Source of the DNA: Mobula hypostoma
Lineage: Eukaryota
Assembly: GCF_963921235.1 (NCBI RefSeq)
Contig: NC_086097.1
Span: 124,064,001-124,128,000, forward strand
DNA: 64,000 nt
Direction of reading: 5' to 3'
This document shows positions 27,971 to 54,899 of the stretch, one piece after another; the first letter of the stretch is position 1; every line of letters begins with the position of its first letter. The notes beneath the pieces are model-generated. The model had not been told where the DNA came from and searched no databases. It saw only the letters and a list, made by a program, of their open reading frames with translations. Made by a program: the position numbers and the translations under genes.

Positions 27971-30900
27971 ATGCAGTACGAATTCAAACACATGATCTCT
28001 GCCTCCTCAGGGTTCCTTTAAGTTAAGATCCCTAATAAGATCTGGGTTATTACACAACACCCAATCTAAGATAGCCTTTCCCCAAGGAGGCTCAGGCACA
28101 AGCTGCTCTAAAAGCTATCTCGTAGGCATTCAATAAATTCCCTGCCTTGCAATCTGACACCAGCCTGATTTTCCCAGTTCCCTTGCGCATTGAAGTCCCC
28201 CATTACAATTGTGTCATTACCACTATTACATGCCTTTTCCAGCTCCCTTTGCAATCTTAACCCTTCATCTTGGCTACCATTTAGGTGTCTATATATGATT
28301 CCCATAATTTTTTTTTTAACCTTTGCAATTTTTTTAACTCTTCCCACAAAAATTCAATGTTCTCTGACCCCATGTCAACTCTTTCTAAAGATTTAACTCC
28401 AACAGACCCACACCACTGCCTATGCTTTCTTGCCTGTCCTTTCAATACAAAGTATATCCTTTGATGTTAAGCTCCCAAATATGGCCTTCTTTCAGCCACG
28501 ACTCAGTGATGCCCACAATTTCATACCAACCAATCTCTAATTGCACCACAAGTTCGTCCACCGTATTCTGAATGCTTTGTGTATTTAAATACAGCATATT
28601 CAGTCCTGCGTTCCTTGCCCTTTTGAATTTTGCCTCTGTGGTACAATTTTACTCTTTGCTCCGTCTGCATTTGTACCCAATCATTGGCTTGTCTTTCCTT
28701 ACATTTATGCTACACCCATCATCTACTTGTAAACCTGCTGGCTCATCCTCAGCTCCATCATACTGATTTCCATCCCCCTGCCATATTAGTTTACACCACT
28801 CCCAACAGCTCTAGTAAATCTGTCTGCAAGAATATTTGTCCTCCTTGGATTCAAGTGTAATCTGTCCCTTTTGTACAGGTTCCATCTGCCCCAGAAGATG
28901 TCCCAATTATCTGGAAATCTGAATTCCTGCCCCCTGCTCCAATTCTTCAGCCGCACATTTATCTGTCACCTCATTCTACTCATATCCTCACTGTCGTGTG
29001 GCAAAGGCAGTAATCCTGAGATTACTACCCTTGAGGTCTTGCTTCTCAGCTTCCTTCCTAATTCCCTATATCCTTTTTTCAGGACCTCCTCCCTTTTTCT
29101 TCCTATGTCATTGGTCCCAATATGTACCGCGACTTCTGGCTGCTTACCCTCTCTTTTCAGGATATCATGGACACATCCAGAAACATCTTGGACCCTGGCA
29201 CCTGGGAGGCAAACTACCATCCAGGTTTCCTTTTTGCATCCACAGAATCATCTGCCTGTCCCCCTGACTATAAAGTCAGCTATTACTGCTGCCATCCTCT
29301 TCAGTTTCCTACTCTTCTAAGCCACAGGGACAAACTCAGTGCCAGAGCTATTGCTTCCCCCAAGTAGGTTGTCCCCCCCACCCCCCAACAGTACTCAAAA
29401 TGGAGTACTTATTGTTGGCGGGGGGCGGGGGATGGCCACAGGGCTGCTCTCCACTATCTGACGTTCTCCCTTCCCTCTCCTGACAGTCACCCATTTATCT
29501 GTCTCCTGTAGCCTTACCTCCCTGTAGCTCCTGCCTATTACCGCTTCATTTTCCCCAACAAGCATTGAGCCGCGAGCTGCAGTTCCCTAACACAGTCTCT
29601 AAGGAGCTGCATCTCGATCCACCTGAGGCAGATGTGGCCATTGGGGATGCTGGGAGTCTCCTGGAAATCCCTGATCTGACATCTAGAACAGGACACTGAC
29701 ATACCCTTATTCTCTCAAGATTTAAGTATGAAATAAGGAATGAACTTGCGTCCGCCTGTTCTGGCTGAAGCTTTGTTGTGCCAAAGCCTTACTACTCTGC
29801 CTCAGACTACTCCCACAGTGACAGATGCATCCACCTCTATCACAAAAAGTCTGGAGGGATGGTGGAGAATGGGAGTGGTAGTGAAGTATATCTTGAGCTC
29901 CTCGAAACTGTGGTCTCTGCTTATTTGTGAGATAGGCGACTTGGTGAGGAGGGTGAGAGGAGTGGTGAATTGGCTGTAGTTTCTGATGAAATGGCAAAAG
30001 AAGTTGGAGAAGCCCAAGAGGTGCTGTAGCTGTTTGAGGGAGCACAGTTGGAGCTATTCAACGATGGCGCCCACTTTCTGTAGGACTATGGTTACGCCTT
30101 GGGGTGAAGGAATGTAACCAAGGAAGGAAATGACTGGGGCACGGAATTACTATTTCTCTAACTTGCAGTACAGTTGGTTTTCGAAGAGTCAGATGTGGAC
30201 TTGATGATGAGGATGTCATCAATGTAGACAAAAACAGACCTGTGTGGCATGTCTCAGAGGATCTCGTTGATGAAGGCTTAGAATACGATTGGACTGTTAG
30301 AATGTCTGAAAGGCGTCACCATGTACTTGTAGTAACCAGTGAGTGCTACGAATACAGACTTCTGCTCATCCTCCTGCTGGATGCAGATCAGACTGTATGC
30401 AGTCTGTAGATCCAGTTTGCTGTAGATCTGGGCTCCATGGTGTGTTTTGAAGGGAAGCAGCTAGCGGTTCTTAATGGTGATTTTGTTGAGTCCATATAGT
30501 TAATGCAGGGTTGAAGTGCTCCATCTTTCTTCTTGACAAAGAAGAATCCTGAATTGGCTGGGGACGGGAATGGTCAAATGAGGCTGTGCTGTAGCGCTTT
30601 GGTGATGCAGTCATTTATGACTTGGGTCTCAGGAGGGGAGAAGGAGAACAGGTGACCTCGGGGAGGGGTGGCGCCCGGAAGAAGTCGATTGCGCAGTGAT
30701 GTGGTCTGTGAGACAGAAGGGTACTGGCTTCCCTTTTTACTGAAGGAGGTGGTTAAATTGTGGTATTCCTGTGGGAGTTCGGTGAGGTTAAGGCTTTTCT
30801 GTCTCCACAGATTTATGGGGTGAGGTCAGCTGAGGGTGCAGGCAAGTGGTCCAGCAGGTGGGTCCCCAACTCAGCAATGAACTGGTTGACCAGGCGATGT

Positions 30901-31612
30901 GAGGATCGAGAGTAGAGAGCCAGGGGTAACCCAAGATGAGAGGAGTGTTGGATGAGTTGACCAGGAGGAATTGGATGGACCTCTCGGTGCTCTCTGATGT
31001 TCATATGCACAGGCTGCATGTGCACTCTGACCATTCCAGACCCCAAGGGACATCCGTCAATTGCTTTGTCAATTCAGAGGGCCAGACTGCATTCCAGTTG
31101 CACTCCACTGCGAGGGTCTGGAATTCCACAGTGTAATCCAGCACTGAGCATGAGCCTTGATACAGGTGAGGTATCCAATCTGCTGTCACCCTTTCACTTC
31201 CAGATGGTAAAAAGCTCGGTGCATCCCAGCAGCGAATTCCTCGTATTGATTGCAAATGTGGATTTTATTGACCCAGTTAGCGGCAGCCCAGGTCAGAGAG
31301 AAATAATGAAGGCAATTTTGACTCAGTCCGTAATATTAAAAGAGATGGCTGGAGCTCAAAGTGCAAGACATATTGGGATAGGAAGTTGTAGCATCATGTT
31401 GGGGGACTGTCAAAGCAGTCGAGCACCAGTTTCCAGGGCTCTGAGGGAGGAGGCTGACTGGTGTAGGGTTGCTTTATCAAGACAGAGAGCTGGTTGAGAA
31501 TGGTGAGCAGATGGTCAATGGTTTCCTGCTGCTTCTGGATCATGTACACGCATTGGTGGGCAGCTTCCTTTAGGCAAGCAGACTGCTTAGTCAATCATGG
31601 ATTCACACAGTC

Positions 31613-32918: not shown

Positions 32919-34076
32919 GTAAGAACAAGGGAATCTTTAGTATGAAACAAGATCGGAACTTAACCATCCTTGTTAACTAATTAGAGATATGTGAGCCAGC
33001 ATACTTGAAGGAATTTAATATAAAATAGATGGAAATTATGAGGTTTAAATTAGGTAGAAGAATACCTTTCATTTTGTTAAACTAAATTTTTCTTTACTAT
33101 ATTATACTTGGTACCATCAGTTGTTTAAAAATTTGTTCTTTACGTATGACATCCTGAAATTTAGGAAGGTGCAAGAAGTCTTTCATTCCATTTTTTGACA
33201 ACAGATTTTGTTGACTTTCTACTTTTTAATGCTGGACAAGATTTTAATTGGGGGAAAATTGATCAAGGGAGAACACATCCGAATGTTAACTCTTCAGCAG
33301 GTATTGGATTACAGAATATATAGTATTGCTACTTCAATCTGAGAAAGACCCCTTTTACATCATGTTCTAGTGAAACATACATTTCTCTGTTTGATTGGGC
33401 AATGGAAACTCTTTAATAAAGAGGAAGATTAGCTTTATTTGTCACGTGTACATTGAAACATGCAGTGAAATGCATCGTTTGCATCATATCATTGAAGATT
33501 GTGCTGAGAAGCCTGCAAGTGTCCCCATGACTCTGGCACCAACATGGCACGCCCACAGCTCACTAACCCAGCTGGTACATCTTTGGAATGTGGGAGGAAA
33601 CCCACATAGTCATAGGGAAAATGTACAAACTCCTGACAGAGGACTTTCTCTCTCTCTCACTTTCAAGGACTCTACAACCCACGTTCTTGGCATTGTTTAT
33701 TTATTTTGTATTTGCACAGTTTGTCTTTTGCACATTGGTTGTTTATCAGTCTTGTAATTTTTAATTGGTTCCTTTATAGTTTGTTCTGCTGTGAATGCTC
33801 AGAAGAAGATGAATCTCAGAGAAGTATATGGTGACATCGACATATTTTGATAATAAATTTACTTTGAACTTTGAACGGAGAGTAGTGGGCATTGAATGCC
33901 GATTTTATAGCTAGGGCTGTAAAGCAATTGCATTAACTGCTGTGCTTCCATGCCATCCTTAATAGTTTAAGTAAAATATAAATGATTTGCAGCATGTGGG
34001 ATTCCTTTATCATTTACTAAATTAAAAACAGTGTAGTTCAGAGTGATTCACTCGTCTCCTACTTGTTCACTTTCAG

Positions 34077-34218
34077 AATTTGCTTCAGGAACTTGAGCGG
34101 AATCTGAAAGACTTGCAACCTCCTATGAAAATATCGAAGAAAGGGAAAAAGATGTTTATTAAAACAATAGAAGACTCTGACGAGGAACAGCAAAGAGAAT
34201 ATGCAGACAAAAATAAAG
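34077..34218 (+). CDS. SPAG1: SPAG1 coding exon, post-TPR1 linker
   Basis: ctttcag acceptor, gtgaga donor. 142 nt, phase 0-1. NLLQELERNLKDLQPPMKISKKGKKMFIKTIEDSDEEQQREYADKNK resembles the KGKRMxIxEIExSED motif. Confidence 0.93.
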
Positions 34219-34824
34219 GTGAGAATGGCTGTCAGATTTATCTGTACCCAGTTTAGTTTTCCTTCATCATTTTCTTGACATATCCCCTGCACAAATACAA
34301 GGTAATTTAATATGGCTTTGTCTTTCTCTTAACCAAAATCTGAACTATTGAAGAATAGACTGAGATGGTTAAAAACACTTGGAATTATTAGTTTCTTTGT
34401 TTCTTTCATGGCTTCACAATCAGCCTTGGAAAATTGTTTGAAGTAATACAAGTTTTTTCAAGTAAACACAGCAGAAACAATTCAACGATAGCTGCTACTA
34501 TCATTGTGTAGTATATTAGTGCTGTAAAACAAAAAGACCTTATAGACTCCAAAATTAATATGTTTGAGAAGATGAGTAGAAGGGAAGGAGCAATAGCTGG
34601 ATGTCACCTCTCTGGGTACCCACTTTCAACCTGAAGGCTCTCTTAAATGCCTTTCTACAATCAATGCAGTTAATGTACAATATTACTTTATACAAATATT
34701 TTATCATATAAAACATATACACGGTACTGTGCAAAAGTCTGAAGCACATGTACATTGCGAGGATCCCTCTGACTTTTGCATGCAAAAAAACCCACAGATT
34801 TCATGACATATGTGAGTGTTGATT

Positions 34825-35229: not shown

Positions 35230-36666
35230 CAGGTTTCCCCCGCCATCCGAAGGCAGAGCGTTCCTATGAAACAGTTCGTCAGCCAGAATGTCGTAATGTG
35301 AAGAAACAATTGCCATTTATTTATATGGGAAAAATTTGTGAGCATTCGCAGACCCAAAAATAACCTACCAAATCATGCCAAATAATACATAAAACCTAAA
35401 ATAACAGTAACATATAGTAAAAGCAGGAATGATATAAATACGCAGCCTATGTAAAGTAGAAGTACCTTCCTACAATCATTGCCGCACTGTTCTCCGTAGC
35501 GAAAATCTCACGCAAGCGCTCTCGGCAGAAACACTCTCTCAGTAACCTTTAAGCTATGAAGCTGCCAAATCATACCAAATAATGCATAAAAATATGCAGC
35601 CTATATAAAGTAGAAATAATGTATGTACAGTGTAGTATCACTTTCCGGAATTGGGAAGACATCGAGCACACTGATGATGGTGTGTTAGGCTGACTTGTCA
35701 GAGGTTGGGGTGGTCCAGTGGCCCCCAACCTTCAGGCCACGAACCGATACTGATCCGTGAAGCATGCAGGGGTACATTGGTAGCCAGGACGCACCCAGCA
35801 CATCTTTAAGAAGAAAGCAGAAATAAACAAGCTAATTAATTCGATGCCGCCCGACACATAACTGTCGGCCCAGATCAGAGGCGGTGCAATCGGCGATTGC
35901 CGATTTGTGGAGGTGTCATCTCATTGTCGTCTGTTTCCATCAGGGCAGGCAGGTCATCTTCTTCTATGTCTGCCTGCCTCGACGTCGAAGTTCGAGGTTC
36001 GTCGTCTGCTGTGGCTGATGTGGAAGGCTTGCTTGACTGCTTAGCCTCACGCATTTTTCTATTATACAGTTCTTTGTAAGCACTCAAACTATCTTGCAAA
36101 TATGCCCTAAACCGATGTACCCTTTCAAAATTAAAGTCATACTTTAACATTGCAGTGAAAATCTCACACAGTTGCTTCACATTCAGTTCTTGGACGACTT
36201 CACTTTTGGTCCGTTCACTACTGCATTCGGTTTCGATTGTTATCCTTTCCTCTTCCAATTGCATCAGCTCTTCATCTATCAGTTCTTGGTCATGGGATGT
36301 CAAAACCTCTTCAACATCATCTTCATCAACGTCCATAAGCCAAACTCACTTTGTCCTTGCTTCGTTCACCACGATCAAAACGCTTAATTATGTCTTGTTT
36401 TACGCTAAGTGTAACACTCTTACGAACTCTTTTAGGCTTTTCCGATACCTTAGAACTCATCTTGCTAATGGCTGCTCACAGGCACGTATTTAAGCAATGC
36501 CGGCGAGAATGCAGTTCCGGGGGAGGAGCTTGGCTGCTCGGGGTACATGCTGCCTTTTTTCGTATCAGTGAAAACACCTTCTTTTAGTGAAAACAGGTAA
36601 ATAATGTAGGCCTTTCGTAACAGTGAGGTTTCGTAAAGCGAATGTTCGAAAAGCGGGGGGCACCTG
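35230..36666 (-). mobile_element. Internally deleted Tigger/pogo DNA transposon
   Basis: TIRs caggt(tt/g)cccccgc with TA at 35228-29 and 36667-68. N-terminal MSSKVSEKPKRVRKSVTLSVKQDIIKRFDRGER (ATG at 36460) abuts the acidic C-terminal tail (ORF 35875-36336). The DDE core is absent. Confidence 0.9.
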
Positions 36667-36839
36667 TACATCGAAGTAAGCAACACTTAAAAGGTCTCAA
36701 GAAAAAAAACATTATTTTAAAGATTGAAAAAATTTTGGTGATTTTAAAAAAACCCCTACTAAGCAAGAAAAAGTGGGAAAAGGTGGGGGGAAAAGGTCTT
36801 GACTGTTATGTTCCTTTCATTGACTAAATGAACAAAATC

Positions 36840-37090: not shown

Positions 37091-37216
37091 TATGTGATAT
37101 ATGATATGTAATTAATAATTCAATATAGTCAAAAAGGGAACATTTCCAGCCTAAAGGGTAACCAGATGACAAAGAATTACTTCACAATTTATAGACTTTC
37201 TTTCAAAGACTCTACA

Positions 37217-37789
37217 TTCAGTCAGTCAGTGGGTGCGGTCCCGAATCCGGGGTTGGCGGCTATGCACCTCCATCTTCTTCGATCTTGTGACAGCACCGAG
37301 TACAGCCTCTCCTCCAGTTTGTTCTCGCTGGCCGCCTTGGCACCGCCCACTGCTGCCCCCACTAAACTCGAGCCTGAGGCCTTGTCAGCCTCCAGCCGCG
37401 ACCGCTTCTTCGAGCTCGGCCTTTCCTTAGGCGGAGGCCTTGGGCAGGACCAGGCACACGGTGCAGCGCCCAAGTTCATCATGTCTCTTCTAACTAAGTG
37501 GATAGCATACGATTCGTAGATACGTGGTGAGGCTTTAATCTCTTCCACGGAAGATGGCTGTTGGCTCACAAGGAGCTCATCCGCCCTTCGTCAGGTGTTG
37601 TTTTTTAGTCCTGCTGGACATCCTCACACCCTCCTCACCAGACTAAGTCCAGTGGGGGAACCAGCCCAAGTCGCCGACCACTCGACCATGGCCCCCAGCC
37701 GAGCACCGGGTGCCCGCCCCCCGCCGAGTCTCTCCGAGCGTCTGGCACTGGACGAAAAACCATGGGCGAGTGGCCGGCGACCAAACTGG
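37217..37789 (-). mobile_element. Chimeric non-autonomous RTE-like retro-insertion carrying a captured gene fragment
   Basis: GC/CpG-rich island in an AT-rich intron. Flanking repeat aa(a/g)gactctaca at 37205-37216 and 37790-37801. The 3' end encodes QDRRRWR, an RTE-like ORF end, then an (ACTG)n tail. Confidence 0.7.
37291..37470 (-). pseudogene. CYHR1: Captured fragment resembling the 5' coding region of CYHR1/ZFTRAF1
   Basis: PSSKKRSRLEA...AASENKLEERLYSVL (KLEERLYSVL = 37320-37291) matches the recalled CYHR1 pattern PPKKRLR...KLEERLYSVLCC that precedes its RING-type zinc finger. Recognised from memory, not by search. The 5' boundary is approximate. Confidence 0.72.
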
Positions 37790-38596
37790 AAGGACTCTAC
37801 AACTCATGTAAATATATGTATTTACTTATTTCATTATTTGCATGATTTGTCTTTTGCATATTGGTTGTATGCCAGTGTAGTTATTTATAGTTTTTCATAA
37901 ATTCTAATTTTTTAAATTTTCCTATAAATGCCTGCAAGAAGATGAATTTCAAGGTTATATACGTACTTGCGTAATACATTTTGACTCCTCCTCAGATGGT
38001 ATCTGACCCAACTGAATATCAGCTTCTATTTAATTCGTCTCCACAGGGTGGCACTGTTACTGCTAAAAGCATATTGCAGGAACCATTATTTGTTTCTCTG
38101 TTGGTGTCATAACCTTTTACAGCTGATTATTCAAGGAAAACTTAGACAAGAAAGCCATTTTCTTTATCCAATAAATGAAATTAAACAATTGGCAATGAAA
38201 TATTTCAAAAATTAAATTTAAAATACAGTTTATTGTATCTTAAAGTCAATTTGTTATATTTGTTTTGGATGATCTTGATATTATATCTCTATCCTAAACA
38301 GCTTTATTTGTCACGTTACATCAAAGTATCAGAACCTACAGTGAAGTGGATAGTTTGTGTTAATAAACAACAATGTCCAGGGATGTGCTGGGAGCAGCTC
38401 GCAAATGTTGCCAGGCTTCTGGTGCCACTATAGCATGCCCACAGTTCACTGACCCTAACCATAAGTATTTGGAATGTGAGAGGAAACTGGTGCACCCAGA
38501 GAAAACCTATGCAGTCATGGAGAGAATGTACATACTCTTTATGGGCAATGGCGGGAACATATATTGCAGCTTGCTCATTCTCAGATCCATTCCCTA

Positions 38597-40595
38597 TGTA
38601 ACTCTCGCTTTGGCTAGCGGCTTAATATAGGGGGTGATAGCCCCCAGCCCGGTCAAACTTATGAAATCTCGTTTGGGTGGATGCTGTGTGATGTGTCCCA
38701 TGTTACAGTGCCCCAAAATAACGAACAGTACACAATATGCGATTAAATGATTAAGCTTTATAGTTCTTACTTTGACTATACGGTTAGTAAAGAAATGATA
38801 AAAGAAAAAAAAGGGCCCAATCTTATTAAACAATCTGTTGCACAATGTTGAAGCTCACAAATACGGCCATTCGTCCACCATCGACCTCCTCCGATCCTCG
38901 CTGCCCTTCAGACCCTCGCTCCAAGTTCACCCCATCCAGCGGTCTACCATCTCTTTCCTTTCACGTCTTCTCTCCTCATCTCTCCCTGGCCAAAAGACTG
39001 TGAAAACCTCTCTTTCAGCTCCCAAGAAAGAACAACAGCATCCCTAACCCCGTTATCTCCAGTCATAACCCAAACATTGCTGCTGCAGAGAAACCATTAC
39101 ATTTACATTTATGTGGAGTACTTCGCCATATATTCAACCTGAGCCTGAGGCTCCGGAGGGTTCCTGTACTGTGGAAGATGTCCTGCCTCGTCCCTGTGCC
39201 GAAGACGCCAAGCCCCAGCGGCCTCAATGACTACAGACCGGTGGCATTGGAGAGACTTGTTCTGGAGCTGCTCCGCCTATGGTCAGGCCACACTTAGGTC
39301 CCCTGCAGTTCGCCTACCAGCCCCGACTAGGAGTTGAGGATGCCATCATCTACCTGCTGAACCATGTCTACACCCACCTGGACAAGCCAGCCAGCACTGT
39401 GAGGGTCATGTTTTTTGATTTCTCCAGTGCGTTCAACACCATTCGCCCTGCTCTGCTGGGGGAGAAGCTGACAGCGATGCAGGTGGATGCTTTCCTGGTG
39501 CCAAGGATTCTTGATTACCTGACTGGGAGACCACAGTACGTGTGCTTGCAACACTGTGTGTCCGACAGAGTGATCGGCAGCACTGGGGCTCCACAGGGGA
39601 CTGTCTTGTCTCCCTTTCTCTTCACCATTTATACCTCGGACTTCAACTACTGCATAGAGTCTTGTCATCTTCAGAAGTTTTCGGATGACTCTGCCATAGT
39701 TGGATGCATCAGCAAGGGAGATGAGGCTGAGTACAGGGCTACGGTAGGAAACTTTGTCACATGGTGTGAGCAGAATTATCTGCAGCTTAATGTGAAAAAG
39801 ACTAAGGAGCTGGTGGTAGACCTGAGGAGAGCTAAGGTACCAGTGACCCCTGTTTCCATCCAGGGGGTCAGTGTGGACATGGTGGAGGATTACAAGTACC
39901 CGGGGTTACAAATTGACAATAAACTGGACTGGTCAAAGAATACTGAGGCTGTCTATAAGAAGGGTCAGAGCCGCCTCTATTTCCTGAGGAGACTGAGGTC
40001 CTTTAACATTGGCCGGACGATGCTGAGGATGTTCTACGAGTCTGTGGTGGCCAGTGCTATCATGTTTGCTGTTGTGTGCTGGGGCAGCAAGCTGAGGGTA
40101 GCAGACACCAACAGAATCAACAAACTCATTCGTAAGGCCAGTGATGTTGTGGGGATGGAACTGGTCTCTCTGACGGTTGTGTCTGAAAAGAGGATGCTGT
40201 CCAAGTTGCATGCCATCTTGGACAATGTCTCCCATCCACTACATAATGTACTGGTTGGGCACAGGAGTACATTCAGCTAGAGACTCATTCCACCGAGATG
40301 CAACACAGAGCGTCACAGGAAGTCATTCCTGCCTGTGGCCATCAAACTTTACAACTCCTTCCTTGGAGGGTCAGACATCCTGAGCCAATAGGCTGGTCCT
40401 GGACTTATTTCATAATTTACTGGCATAATTTACATATTACTATTTAACTATTTATGGTTTTATTACTATTGATTATTTATGGTGCAACTGTAACGAAAAC
40501 CAATTTCCCCCGGGATCAATAAAGTATGACTATGACTATGATCAGTGAAACCTTACAGCATGCTACACAGCAGTGAAACCCTACAGCATGTTTCA
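38597..40595. mobile_element. Putative solo LTR interrupted by a Rex1/Babar LINE
   Basis: Begins TGTAAC and ends catgtttCA (degenerate inverse). CpG-richer non-coding body. TSD not clean (ccta/tctg). Confidence 0.5.
39111..40541 (+). mobile_element. Young 5'-truncated Rex1/Babar LINE with a 333-aa RT frame
   Basis: ORF 39279-40280 contains LQFAYQP, FFDFSSAFNTI, GAPQGTVLSPFLF, KFSDD and LNVKKTKELVVD. The frame continues past an in-frame TAG. AATAAA plus (TATGAC)n tail. Confidence 0.95.
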
Positions 40596-42561
40596 TCTGT
40601 AATCGTGAGCTTTGGCTCAGCAGAACCATTTAATACTCATCTAGAAGTTGGGAGTGCAAGCATAACACTAGTGTTTCAATATCTGGGATACCATTTAAGT
40701 GTAGCACTGAAGGAGAGACCAGAATTGTAATTTATATCTAGAACTGGGGGATATGAGCAAGATCCTAAGTGAATATTTCTCATTGGAATTCATTAGGGAA
40801 AGGATACTGAAGCTGGGGGTTAAGGAGGGGTACATTAATTTTCTGTATCAGGAAGGAGGAAGTGGTAGAAATATTGGAGTACATTAGGGTGAATAAATTC
40901 CAGGGCTTGATGAGATACGAATGAGTTTAAACTAATATGGCAGGGGACGGGAATCAGTATGATAGAGCAGAGGATGAGCCAGCAGGTTTACAAGTAGATG
41001 ATGGGTGTAACATGAATGTAAGGAAGGACAAGCCAAAGATGGAGCACAAATGCAAACAGAGCAAAGAGTTAAATTGTACCACAAAGGTAAAGTTCAAAAG
41101 GGCAAGGAATGCAGGACTGAAGGTGCTGTATTCAAATGGGCGTAGCATTCAGAATAAGGTGGATGAACTCATGGTGCAATTAGAGATTGGTTGGTATGAT
41201 GTTGTGGGCATCACTGAGCCGTGGCTGAAAGGAGGCCATAGTTAGGAACTTAATATTAAAGGATATACCTTGTATCGAAAGGACAGGCTGTGGTGTGGCT
41301 CTGTCAGTAAAAGAAGGGATTACATCTTTAGAAAGAGGGTAACATAGGGTTAGAGAATGTTGAATCTTTAGTGAAGTTAAGAAATTTCAGGGGTAAAACA
41401 AATTATGGGAATCATATACAGGCCTCCAAATGGTAGCCAAGATATGGGGTTAAGATTGCAAAGAGAGCTGGAAAAGGCATGTAATGTGGGTAATGAGGCA
41501 ATTGTAATGGGGGACTTCAGCATGCAAGGGGATTGGGAAAATCGGGTTGGTGTCGGATCACAAGAGAGGGAATTTGTTGAATGCCTATGAGATGGCATTT
41601 TAGAGCAGCTTGTGCTTGAGCCTACTCTGGGAAAGGCTATCTTAGATTGGGTGTTGTGTAATAACTCAGATCTTATTAGGGAGCTTAATGTAAAGGAACC
41701 CTGAGGAGGCAGTGATCATACTATGATTGAAGTCATACTGCAATTTGAGAAGGAGAAGCATAACTCGTGTGTATCGGTATTGCAATGGAATAAAAGCATG
41801 AGAGAAGAGCTTGCCCAGGTGGATTGGTGAGGAGGACAGCAGAAAAGAGTTGGCTGAAGTTTCTGGGAATCATTCACAAGGGACAGGATAGGTATGTCCC
41901 ACAGAGCAAGAAGTTATCAAATGGCAGGACTTGGCAACCGTGGCTGACAAAGGAGGTTGAGGACTGCCTAAAAGCCATGGAAATGGAAAGGGCACACATG
42001 GAAAGTGAGTGGGAAGTTGGATGATTGGGAAGTTTTAAAAATCCATCAAAAGGCAACTAAAAAAGCTATAAGAAGGGAAAAGATGAAATATGAGGGCAGA
42101 CTGGGCAATAATATAAAGCAGGATACTATAAGTTTTTTCAGTTATATAATGAGTAAAAGCGAGGTGGGAGTTGATTTTGGACTACTAGAAAATGATGCTG
42201 GTGAGGTAGTAATGGGTGTCAAAGAAATGGCAGATGAACTTAATGGATACTTTGCACCTTTCTTCACTCTGGAAAACAGTAGTGGTGTGCCAGAAGTCTG
42301 TGACTGTCAGGGAGCAGGAGTGAGTGCCATTGCTATTACAAAGGAAAAAACGCTAAGCCAACTCCAAGGTGGATAAGTCACCTGGACCAGATGCACTACA
42401 TCCCAGTGTCCTGAGGGAGGTTGCTAAAGAGATAACGGATACATTAGTCATGATCTTTCAAGAATCACTTGATTCTGGCATGGTCCCGACGTATTGGAAC
42501 ATTGCAAATGTCACTCCACTCGTTAACAAGGGAGGAAGGCAAAATAAAGGAAATTGCAGGC

Positions 42562-42744
42562 TTTTTCTCCTTCCCCACCTTTTAAATGTACTCCTCGTCT
42601 CTTTTTCTCCAGTCCTGCCAAAGAGTCTGGGCCCAAAATGTCAACTGTACTTTTTTTCCGTAGATGCTGCCTGGCCTGCTCAGTTCCTCCAACATTTTTT
42701 GTGTGTTATTTGGATTTCCAGCATCTGCAAATTTTCTCTTGTTT
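42562..42744 (+). mobile_element. Older PLE terminus inserted in CR1
   Basis: Degenerate hammerhead 42611-42646. Imperfect flanking repeat gaaattgcaggc / gaaattataggt. Confidence 0.75.
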
Positions 42745-43169
42745 GAAATTATAGGTCAGTTAGTCCAATCTCAGTGGACTAGTGGGAAAGTGTTGGAGTC
42801 TATTATTAAGGATGAGGTTTCGTGGTACTTGGAGACTAATGATAAAATAAGTCAAAGTCAGCATGGTTTCTAGAAAGGAAAATCTTGCCTGACAAATCTG
42901 TTAGAGTTCTTGGAGGAAGTAACGAGCAGGGTGGACAAAGGAGAGGCAGTGGATGTCATTTACTTAGATTTTCAGAAGGCGTTTGATAAGGTGCCACACA
43001 TGAGGCTGCTTAACAAGATAAAATCCTGTGGTATTACAGGAACGATACTGTCATGGATAGTGGAATGGCTGACAGGCAGGAGGCAGTGAGTGGGAATAAA
43101 AGAGGCCCTTTTCTGGTTGGATGCCAGTAACTAGTGGTGTTCCTCAGGGGTCAGTGCTGGGACTGCTAC

Positions 43170-43266
43170 CTAGTCCTGACGAAGGGTCTCGGCCTGAAAC
43201 GTCGACTGCACCTCTTCCTACAGATGCTGCTTGGCCTGCTGCGTTCACCAGCAACTTTGATGTATG
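43170..43266 (+). mobile_element. Minimal PLE terminus insertion (~97 bp) starting at the hammerhead
   Basis: Intact hammerhead 43172-43207. Direct repeat ctgctac at 43163-43169 and 43267-43273. It splits the CR1 PQGSVLG/LLLF motif. Confidence 0.88.
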
Positions 43267-44465
43267 CTGCTACTTTTCACATTGTTTGTCAGTGATTTAG
43301 ATAATGGAATTGATGGCTTTGTGGCAAAGTTGGCGGATGATACGATGAAAGGTGGAGGGGTAGATAGTGCTGAGGAAGCAATGCATTTGCAGAAGGACTT
43401 GGACAAGTTGGAAGAATGGGCACAAATGTGGCCGATGGAATGCAGAGTTGGGAAATGTATGATAATGCACTTCGTTAAAAAGGAACAATAGTGCGGACTA
43501 TTATCTAAATGGGGAGAAGTTTCAAACATCAGAGGTGCAGAGGGAATTAAGGGTCCTCGTGCAAGACTCCCAGAAGGTTAATTTACAGGTTGAGCCTGTG
43601 GTAAAGAAGGCAAATGCAATGTTGGCATTTATTTCAAGGGTGCACTTGGAGTATTGTCAACAGTTTTGGGCCCCATATCTCAGAAAGGTTATGTTGTCAT
43701 TGGAGAGAGTCCAGAGGTGGTTCACAAGGATGATTCGGGGAATGAAGGGGTTAACATATGAGGTGTGTTTGGCAGTTTTGTGCCTGTACTCACTGAAATT
43801 TAGAAGAATGTGTGGGAATCTCATTGAAACCTACTGAATGTTGAAAGGACTAGGTAGGGTGGATGTGGAGAGGATGTTTCCTGTGGTGGGAGTATCCAGA
43901 ACTAGAGGACACAGCCTCAAAACTGAGGGGCAGCCCTTGAGAACAGAGGTAAGGAGGAATTTTTTTTATCCATAGAGTAGTAAATCTGTGAATGCTCAGC
44001 CACAGACTGCGGTGGAGACCAAGTCCATCTGATTATTTAAGGCAGAAGTTGATTGTTTCCTGATCGGTCAGGTCATCAAAAGATATGGCGAGAAGGCAGG
44101 TGCATGGGATTGAGTGGGATCCGGGATCAGCCATGATAGAATGGCGGAGCAGACTCAATGAGCTGAATAGCCTAATTCTGGTCCTGTGTCTTATAGTTGT
44201 ATGGTCTTATGGGATCTATCCCAGCAGATAATGAAAACAATGGAGGAGACTGCTGGGACTATGACGAAAATGTTTGCATCTTTATTGGGAACAGATGAGA
44301 TACCAGAAGATTGAATGGAAACTAACGTTGTTCCCTTGTTCAAAGAAGGCATTCAAGAGATAAACCTGGAAATTATAGGCCTTGCATTGGTAGAGAAGTT
44401 GCTGGAGAAGATTCTGAGAGAGTGATTTCATGTTCACTTGGAATGGTTTAGGAAGAGTTAATATA

Positions 44466-53480: not shown

Positions 53481-53985
53481 TATTCACGCTTTTTATAAGT
53501 ATTATTCAGTGCTGTTTCTATATTCCTATTTTATAACCTGCATTCAAAACAAAACTGAAAATACTTTTTGCAGAAAATAAAGCTTTTTTTAAAAAATCAG
53601 TTTAATAAATAATACATTGGCTTAAGATTGTACAGTGTTTGCCAAAACACTTAATTTCTTGGTTGGGTTGATTGGTATTTTTTCACAATAAGTTTAGTTG
53701 ACTCACTGGTTATAAAGCAAACAGCTCTCTGCCTATGCTGATGAAGAGGGAAGTACTGCTTTTACTTTCCATGAAAATCAAGTGCATTCTTAACATTCTT
53801 TTTCCAATTAGCTGGTTGTGAACTTTGCTGAAGGTCTCTTACCTTGGACATCGTTTTCAATCTGAGTGCCATGTTGTTACCCTATTAAACTTGTGATACA
53901 GTTTCTTTACCTTCCCCTTCTTAAAGACTGCAATAGTTCTTTCCACTGATGCAATCTAGCTTGTAATATATGAACTTCCTTCTAG

Positions 53986-54438
53986 ATCCTAATACACCGG
54001 TGGGCAGAGAAACATCAAAGGTAAATGCTGTCATGGGGAACGCACAGAAAAAATGTTCACCCACTCGAGAAAGTCAGACTAAAGAGAAGAAAAGTGGCAA
54101 TACTGCAGCGCAGAAAGACAATAAAGATACTGATGGTGATTTAACAAGATTAAAGAAAACAGAACAAAGTAGACACAAACATGAAACAAAAAGTGAAAAT
54201 GTCAAGGATGTTTCAGTTTCAGTGCTAAGAGAAGGCCAAGAATCTCCGAGAACTGACTCCAACCAGGTTCTTCCCCCTGGGTCAAGTACACAGACAGAGA
54301 AAGAAGCGAATAGCCTAGGGGCTCTGCCTTCTCCTGTGTCAAAGCTTAAGAGTGAAGGAAATGAACTGTTCAAAACTGGGCAATTTGGAGATGCAGTGAT
54401 GAAATACACTAAAGCTATTACTGAGCTTTCTGAATCAG
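53986..54438 (+). CDS. SPAG1: SPAG1 large coding exon: linker plus start of TPR domain 2
   Basis: ccttctag acceptor, gtatga donor. 453 nt, phase 1-1, inside ORF 53970-54458. Contains VMGNAQKK and LKSEGNELFKTGQFGDAVMKYTKAI. The acceptor was chosen by phase compatibility. Confidence 0.9.
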
Positions 54439-54899
54439 GTATGATAGCAGCCTTTTAATATATTGATTAAAGTACACTGCATACGCATATGCATTCCTCC
54501 TAATCATATGCATACAATTTTGGAGGTAAAATGTTTGCATGTTTGATTTTAGCACATGAATTTGATTTGAAATACTGTTTTTCGTAGATGGTTTAAGTAC
54601 ATAAATGTTTTCCACTGGTTAGATGTGATCAGTATTGCTTTTCATAAGGCTACTTTTAATTTACTTATGGAGAATTTTGTATCTCCTGAATGGCCATAAT
54701 GTTCTTTGTATCTAATGTAAAAGCAATGTATAGCTAAGAGGAAGTATAATAAAATATAGTTACTGTAAGATAGTCGGGCCATTTGTTTTTAGTGTTCAGA
54801 TATACATTTGTTAACATTTGTTTCTCAAACCATCTATTATCAAAAATCCATATGAAATACACCGTCTATTTTAAAAATAAAAGTGAAGCAATAACATGC

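Follow-up and report, generated by a model that had tools for sequence, protein, structure and literature searches.

Several non-autonomous families of the RTE clade, namely Bov-A, RTESINE1/2, MAR4_MD and RTE-N2_Lch, are bipartite elements (Kojima 2018, PMC5786205; PMC7245038), with RTE-N2_Lch retaining 214 bp of the 5' end and 70 bp of the 3' end of an RTE (PMC5786205). The family described here, found through one insert in the genome of Mobula hypostoma, has in common with them, as far as the cited descriptions extend, a 5'UTR part, a LINE 3' end of about 70 nt (here 73), a microsatellite tail and the loss of the ORF. In those descriptions small RNAs or unattributed sequences form the heads placed in front, whereas here permuted host coding sequence separates the two LINE parts, and a fold-back hairpin that the element made from itself serves as the head. 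Both ends of the family derive from one LINE of the same genome, the coding region has been lost and the whole has spread as a unit. It is thus of the bipartite non-autonomous RTE type, and is set apart by its permuted internal host cargo and its fold-back hairpin head.

Circular RNA-derived pseudogenes, notably the 33 circRFWD2 copies in mouse (Dong et al. 2016, PMC4897178), likewise combine a non-colinear order of host exons with many copies and an association with retrotransposons. As reported there they join annotated exon ends and have LTR flanks (PMC4897178), whereas here the circle would lie inside a first exon, be represented by exactly one lap, miss a splice-type joint by 2 nt and be fixed in a LINE-derived element. 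SVA_F1, which carries MAST2 exon 1, and the STK40-SVA of chimpanzee with its 94 members (PMC6139936) also amplify a host first exon inside a non-autonomous non-LTR family; in the published outline this cargo is colinear, at the 5' end, acquired by ordinary splicing and driven by L1, in contrast to an internal, permuted, RTE-type cargo in roughly ten times as many copies. Both snoRTE/PlatSINE1 of platypus (PMC7245038) and the R2/R1 SIDEs (PMC3414825) are LINE-end chimeras with a cellular RNA or a second element that spread as a unit, and template jumps have been proposed for chimeras of this type in the same two sources. Their heads are non-coding RNAs or ribozymes in colinear order, and the cited accounts describe neither an mRNA cargo nor a record of editing. 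Lastly, microDNA comes close in size (near 200 bp) and in its GC-rich exon source, although the circles reported are somatic and transient, and that source does not describe germline capture into a retroposon (PMC8458813).

From the comparisons set out below, we consider it probable that the insert is a neutral copy of a bipartite RTE-type family whose permuted ZFTRAF1 piece came from a small circle, a family mobilised by a LINE and headed by an ADAR-edited fold-back hairpin. Such a family would be a dated, thousand-fold record, from a vertebrate germline, of three events that usually leave no lasting trace: a small exon circle, template jumping onto it and A-to-I editing of retroposon RNA. 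Host coding cargo is known among DNA transposons from Pack-type elements; here, stringent LINEs are seen to be able to carry it between both of their ends. A search of the openly accessible literature on the family, or on CYHR1/ZFTRAF1 and transposons in fishes, found nothing; the family may already have an entry in Repbase or Dfam.

The element, its copies and its partner LINE

The window, i.e. the entire 64,000-nt stretch of DNA that was analysed, holds the element on its minus strand at 37217-37789 (573 nt), a full-length copy as judged by comparison of copies. It is flanked by a 12-bp target-site duplication, with the 5' copy at 37790-37801 and the 3' copy at 37205-37216 differing by one mismatch (11/12), and it splits an older dispersed repeat on the plus strand (37185-37900, in parts of about 37185-37204 and 37802-37900). 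CpG observed/expected is 0.74 in the insert versus 0.29 in the whole window. When joined, the flanks can be aligned, through the insertion point, with an unbroken copy of the older repeat at about 33640-33770. Because this empty-site homolog carries the 12-mer only once, the duplication was made upon insertion; the alignment comprises some 20 nt of left flank and some 100 nt of right flank, the left flank by itself scoring no better than shuffles. An earlier note on this DNA had described a CpG-rich insert that splits an older repeat between an 11/12-bp duplication, and this description is borne out.

With the element as query, 1,935 candidates were obtained from the 3.48-Gb genome, and the 40 of these that were scored each cover at least 524 of the 573 nt at 88–92% identity, the match to itself apart. 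A set of 120 fetched loci, after removal of four host-gene and five LINE-tail loci, left 111 that represent 81 distinct copies, and every one of the 81 has the same three joints. A 22-mer spanning the 10-nt deletion typical of the family has 344 exact matches in the genome; at all 30 sites examined, taken in positional order, the sequence runs on into the host piece, and at 29 of them as far as the tail. Since this 22-mer is intact in 38 of 79 spanning copies and in 5 of 19 in a less biased, tail-picked set, the family is estimated at about 700–1,300 copies. A multi-copy retrotransposed family with identical junctions, as the earlier note had suspected, therefore exists, and its hundreds of ZFTRAF1-like matches are liable to confuse both annotation and read mapping.

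Duplications of at least 7 bp flank 51 of the 81 copies, whereas shuffled pairings gave such duplications in 14 of 241 cases, and 5' truncation is graded; together with the high copy number and the microsatellite tail, these features mark spread as a unit by target-primed reverse transcription. Copies diverge from the family majority by 2.8% outside CpG (1.0–6.0%) and by 18% at CpG. Subfamily structure was looked for and rejected, with just one weak linked pair of sites in an otherwise star-like alignment of 116 rows, a number that includes some duplicate loci. This divergence and the want of subfamilies point to one master and a single past burst. The joint of the 98-nt deletion, which is specific to the family, is spanned at 85% likeness or more by contigs from two coded organisms, A and B, and the leader is therefore not limited to one sample. 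One copy (L224) stops inside the first part of the host piece (piece A below), at about nt 346, and has no tail. An unrelated, uniform 1.5-kb repeat with sharp ends (L121-L150; 5,633 candidates, about 91–94%), probably a DNA transposon, was left unused.

The 3' end of the element (37217-37289, minus strand, 73 nt) consists of the last 21 ORF codons of a LINE, the stop codon and an (ACTG)n tail, and over this part the family majority matches, base for base, the majority sequence from 23 LINE tails. Among 30 examined of the 79 exact tail matches, 25 belong to chimeras and 5 run on into RT sequence. Walking upstream from such tails yielded seven long LINE copies of about 3.4 kb with a single, broken endonuclease+RT frame, four of which have the same leader as the family. 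Their closest homologs are proteins of about 1,010 aa with endonuclease and RT domains, and the first Met of these aligns with the start codon of the family's frame. The architecture of the RTE clade comprises a length near 3.3 kb, a single ORF of some 1,000 aa that encodes an APE endonuclease and RT, no ORF1 and a short tandem tail, and it is by this architecture that the partner LINE is classed as RTE-type. About 2.9 kb of its ORF is replaced in the family. The RTE-type leader and tail that the earlier note recognised thus both map to the genome's own LINE.

Between the hairpin and the host piece, at 37468-37660 on the minus strand, the LINE alignment places the rest of the 5'UTR and the first ORF codons, with deletions of 7 nt and 10 nt. 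In 17 LINE copies the region of the 5' junction is preserved. The 10-nt deletion is absent from all of them, and a single one, L195, has the family's 7-nt deletion together with one diagnostic base, and so marks the parent subfamily. A leader ending directly before the first endonuclease motif was sought and rejected (0 matches); the joint actually lies 46 nt past the start codon. Rfam gave no match near threshold on the element and three LINE 5' ends, leaving a ribozyme or small-RNA head unsupported. A SINE in the strict sense is likewise rejected, the leader being LINE 5'UTR with no tRNA/5S/7SL-type head, so that the earlier note's term 'SINE-like' applies only loosely.

Several minor features of the LINE copies may be recorded. 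Three 5' ends (L194, L197 and L202) are about 150 nt longer than the others and carry a TATA-like box some 15 nt upstream of the point at which four other copies and the forward arm of the family begin. Visual inspection of the 98 nt lost by the family suggests a certain similarity to an HDV-like fold; Rfam returned nothing for it and P1/P2 could not be paired convincingly. One copy (L168) has its LINE tail inverted upstream and another (L191) a separate, displaced 5' piece. Named homologs are annotated as 'craniofacial development protein 2', a name that may point to an RTE origin. The named matches are from marine invertebrates, horizontal transfer of the LINE being a possibility, and two further matches, P0006 and P0007, which come from short contigs, are intact 1,010-aa relatives of the partner LINE at about 64% identity.

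The hairpin leader and the permuted ZFTRAF1 piece

The leader measures 322 nt, slightly more than the earlier note's estimate of about 300 nt, and is structured and RTE-type as stated there; the whole of it maps to the LINE 5'UTR. Its first part, at 37735-37789 (minus strand), is an inverted fold-back copy of the 5'UTR that matches the reverse complement of the parent at 49 of 55 positions and forms the 5' arm of a hairpin. The forward 5'UTR head follows at 37661-37736 on the same strand, comprising the loop, the 3' arm and the 98-nt deletion joint. Folding of the family stem gives -101.7 kcal/mol (z -7.0, 200 shuffles), while the first 340 nt of the window copy give z -2.0.

Compared with its parent, the head reads G in place of A at many positions. 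The change affects 12 of 18 parent adenines in nt 54–129 of the element versus 0 of 56 in nt 130–324, where family majority and LINE differ at only three sites; Fisher's test gives p 8e-10 for a segment that was chosen after looking, and the reference is a majority sequence built from up to 13 LINE copies, of which 4–8 cover the head. Each of the 10 changed positions in the 3' arm still faces a T in the inverted arm, and hence the founder still had A when this arm was copied. The inverted arm itself shows A>G at three sites, probably four, and the strand is again the same. The A>G changes are thus clustered, all lie on one strand, occur only within a long duplex and affect both of its arms, which is the established mark that ADAR editing leaves once the edited RNA is reverse-transcribed. 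The changes are therefore likely to be ADAR edits in the founder, fixed by reverse transcription. Against editing, several adenines stayed unedited and many of the edited ones are preceded by a 5' G, a neighbour which ADAR disfavours. Sites 19 and 101 have 27–29% A among the copies, inside the upper range of CpG decay. No genome copy was found of a leader with the deletion yet without the edits, allowing up to three mismatches, and the unedited state would be that of the LINE copies and the inverted arm. The literature search found no report of ADAR edits fixed in the consensus of a retroposon.

The middle of the element is derived from the host gene ZFTRAF1 (CYHR1). A protein search returned three matches among 461 candidates, all of them chondrichthyan ZFTRAF1/CYHR1 (best E 2.5e-8), and the genome's own gene was located on contig C5. 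Alignment of the DNA to exon 1 of that gene reveals two parts, both on the minus strand. Piece A, at 37428-37467 (element nt 323–362), corresponds to c.284-323 and is out of the host frame, and piece B, at 37290-37427 (element nt 363–500), corresponds to c.146-283 and is in the host frame. In the window copy, 38 of 40 positions of piece A and 125 of 138 of piece B are identical to the exon, and the family majority differs from it at only three of 178 nt. The attribution made by the earlier note therefore stands as regards the gene and piece B; the 40 nt of piece A had been missed because they lie in another frame, and the host part in fact spans 178 nt (37290-37467) as two swapped parts.

This host piece is circularly permuted, with c.284-323 placed ahead of c.146-283. 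The LINE has bases other than those of the host at both boundary positions, so that c.283 and c.284 both come from the host; the circle was thus opened exactly, with blunt joints to the LINE parts, if a circle it was. Given the permuted order and the exact abutment, plain copying of a linear mRNA is insufficient, and the simple template switch onto host mRNA that the earlier note had envisaged is not supported. An exact opening is what one cut of a circle would yield, while rolling-circle copying or tandem duplication would give arbitrary lengths.

The third joint, at which such a circle would be closed, lies close to splice-type sequence. Piece A ends 4 nt short of the exon-1 splice donor, with GT following c.327, AG lies at c.146-147, and there is a 3-nt microhomology at a period of 180. 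A back-splice to that AG and a joint at the microhomology would give the identical 180-nt circle, 2 nt longer than what the element holds. The 180-nt joint is absent from all 81 copies, every one of which is 2 nt short of donor-to-AG. First exons naturally lack a splice acceptor, and the stretch ahead of c.146, being without a pyrimidine tract, would make a poor one.

The open frame and the origin of the founder

In the family majority a frame of 93 codons opens at the start codon of the LINE itself and closes at the LINE's stop (37222-37503, minus strand). The window copy, in which the earlier note had pointed out a frame through both junctions, is indeed open across them for 122 codons from stop to stop (37222-37590); its family start codon (37501-37503) is mutated, and the first ATG, at 37482, leaves 86 codons. 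Pfam returned merely a sub-threshold DUF for the chimeric frame. Both LINE joints and the opening of the circle are in phase 1, the phase of the host, and of the four combinations of length the frame is kept only by 180 nt with no deletion and by 178 nt with the 10-nt deletion.

That the 93-codon frame arose by chance, and had no role in the success of the family, is the reading to which we incline slightly. The copies show no sign of selection on it, with substitutions of 2.5, 2.6 and 2.8% at the three codon positions, frameshifts in 22 of 76 and a stop in 11 of the other 54. The host piece is in addition GC-rich and stop-poor, and phase matches of this kind are expected by chance at about 1 in 9. 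On the other hand, a chance frame would not be expected to begin and end at the LINE's own start and stop with both LINE joints in the host phase, nor to be kept open by a 10-nt deletion which the LINE copies lack. These points would be accommodated if the master RNA had been selected to keep its frame open, with a founder in frame followed by compensating losses of 2 nt and 10 nt; the likelihood of this we place somewhat short of even. The benefit might then be an escape from decay or a ribosome-coupled access to LINE protein. The family may in this respect serve as a test case of whether non-autonomous RTE RNAs need an open frame.

For the founder itself the following events are proposed. 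The starting point would have been a LINE of the subfamily with the 7-nt deletion, in which an opened circle replaced the 2.9 kb of ORF. Most simply this would take two template jumps of the reverse transcriptase, one onto the free 3' end and one off the 5' end of a once-nicked circle, a scheme suggested by both joints being blunt, although blunt joints would be compatible with DNA end-joining as well. Before or after this replacement, the 98-nt deletion in the 5'UTR, and then fold-back copying, would have created the hairpin, whose RNA would have been edited in the founder before a single amplification burst in trans, likely by the LINE's own proteins. The circle would most likely have measured 180 nt, closed at the exon-1 donor by a back-splice to the cryptic AG or by the 3-nt microhomology, with 2 nt lost later. 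In its 180-nt form the chimera would have been in frame from LINE start to stop, the frame of today being restored by the 10-nt deletion. No intermediate was found, and both the 180 nt of the circle and the sequence of steps are therefore reconstructed.

Whether the circle consisted of RNA is, in our estimate, about an even question. A DNA circle would be microDNA of the GC-rich first exon, closed by the 3-nt microhomology, cut once and end-joined into a broken LINE copy that then became the master. This we regard as unlikely, while still the foremost competitor for the source of the host piece, as it would demand a 2.9-kb deletion and an insertion in one event that left exactly the ends kept by bipartite RTE elements. 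Its closing joint would furthermore coincide with a splice donor, for which a crude uniform null gives a chance of about 5 in 100, and the remaining changes of the founder look RNA-level.

The fullest version of the RNA reading supposes a germline circRNA back-spliced inside ZFTRAF1 exon 1, of which the RTE reverse transcriptase copied one lap, placed in frame between the start and stop codons of the LINE and behind an ADAR-edited head, the frame being kept by compensating deletions for the sake of RNA survival and access to LINE protein. It must be called doubtful. If it were true, a circRNA and an RNA-editing event would both have become a thousand-copy mobile family, and a translated, stop-free RNA would let a non-autonomous RTE survive decay and borrow the proteins of a LINE.

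An origin without any circle appears improbable. Linear ZFTRAF1 RNA would be cut at c.283/284 and the reverse transcriptase would make three jumps over the fragments in swapped order. In vivo template jumps by non-LTR reverse transcriptases are among the events reported by one source (PMC3414825), non-colinear joints from structured, open-ended RNAs are allowed for in another (Dong et al., PMC4897178), and the 178-nt joint would here need no additional loss of 2 nt. The scheme nevertheless costs an extra jump, requires that both pieces of one cut were held together and leaves the position of the third joint at the donor unexplained. A once-opened small circle remains the preferred source of the host piece.

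The window copy in the SPAG1 intron

Stingray SPAG1 protein, found via an exon in the window, maps to 11 stretches on the plus strand. The exons at 34074-34226, on the upstream side, and 53985-54443, on the downstream side, enclose the minus-strand element, which is therefore intronic and antisense, as the earlier note had it. The window copy is in all other respects an ordinary, neutral member of the family, one among hundreds in both orientations, with a divergence from the majority of 3.1% outside CpG (family mean 2.8%) and 21% at CpG. That it regulates ZFTRAF1 as antisense RNA within SPAG1 pre-mRNA is hardly credible, given this ordinary divergence and its many counterparts in both orientations, even though its orientation is as that idea requires and its longest exact match to ZFTRAF1 exon 1 reaches 30 nt.

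A contig of a further coded organism, G, covers the unique flank at 37931-38300 at about 94% and is likely its ortholog; it ends before the insertion site. The contigs of G and of another coded organism, C, leave the hairpin uncovered, which does not count as its absence there. The window contains other mobile sequence as well. A DNA transposon remnant at 35700-36670, presumably Tigger-like, has a transposase-like frame on the minus strand (35875-36345). The same SPAG1 intron holds a 349-codon open RT-like frame of another LINE on the plus strand (39231-40280), with more LINE remains at 41300-43900, and broken gag/pol-like frames on the minus strand at 29700-31600 are probably the remnant of an LTR retrotransposon.
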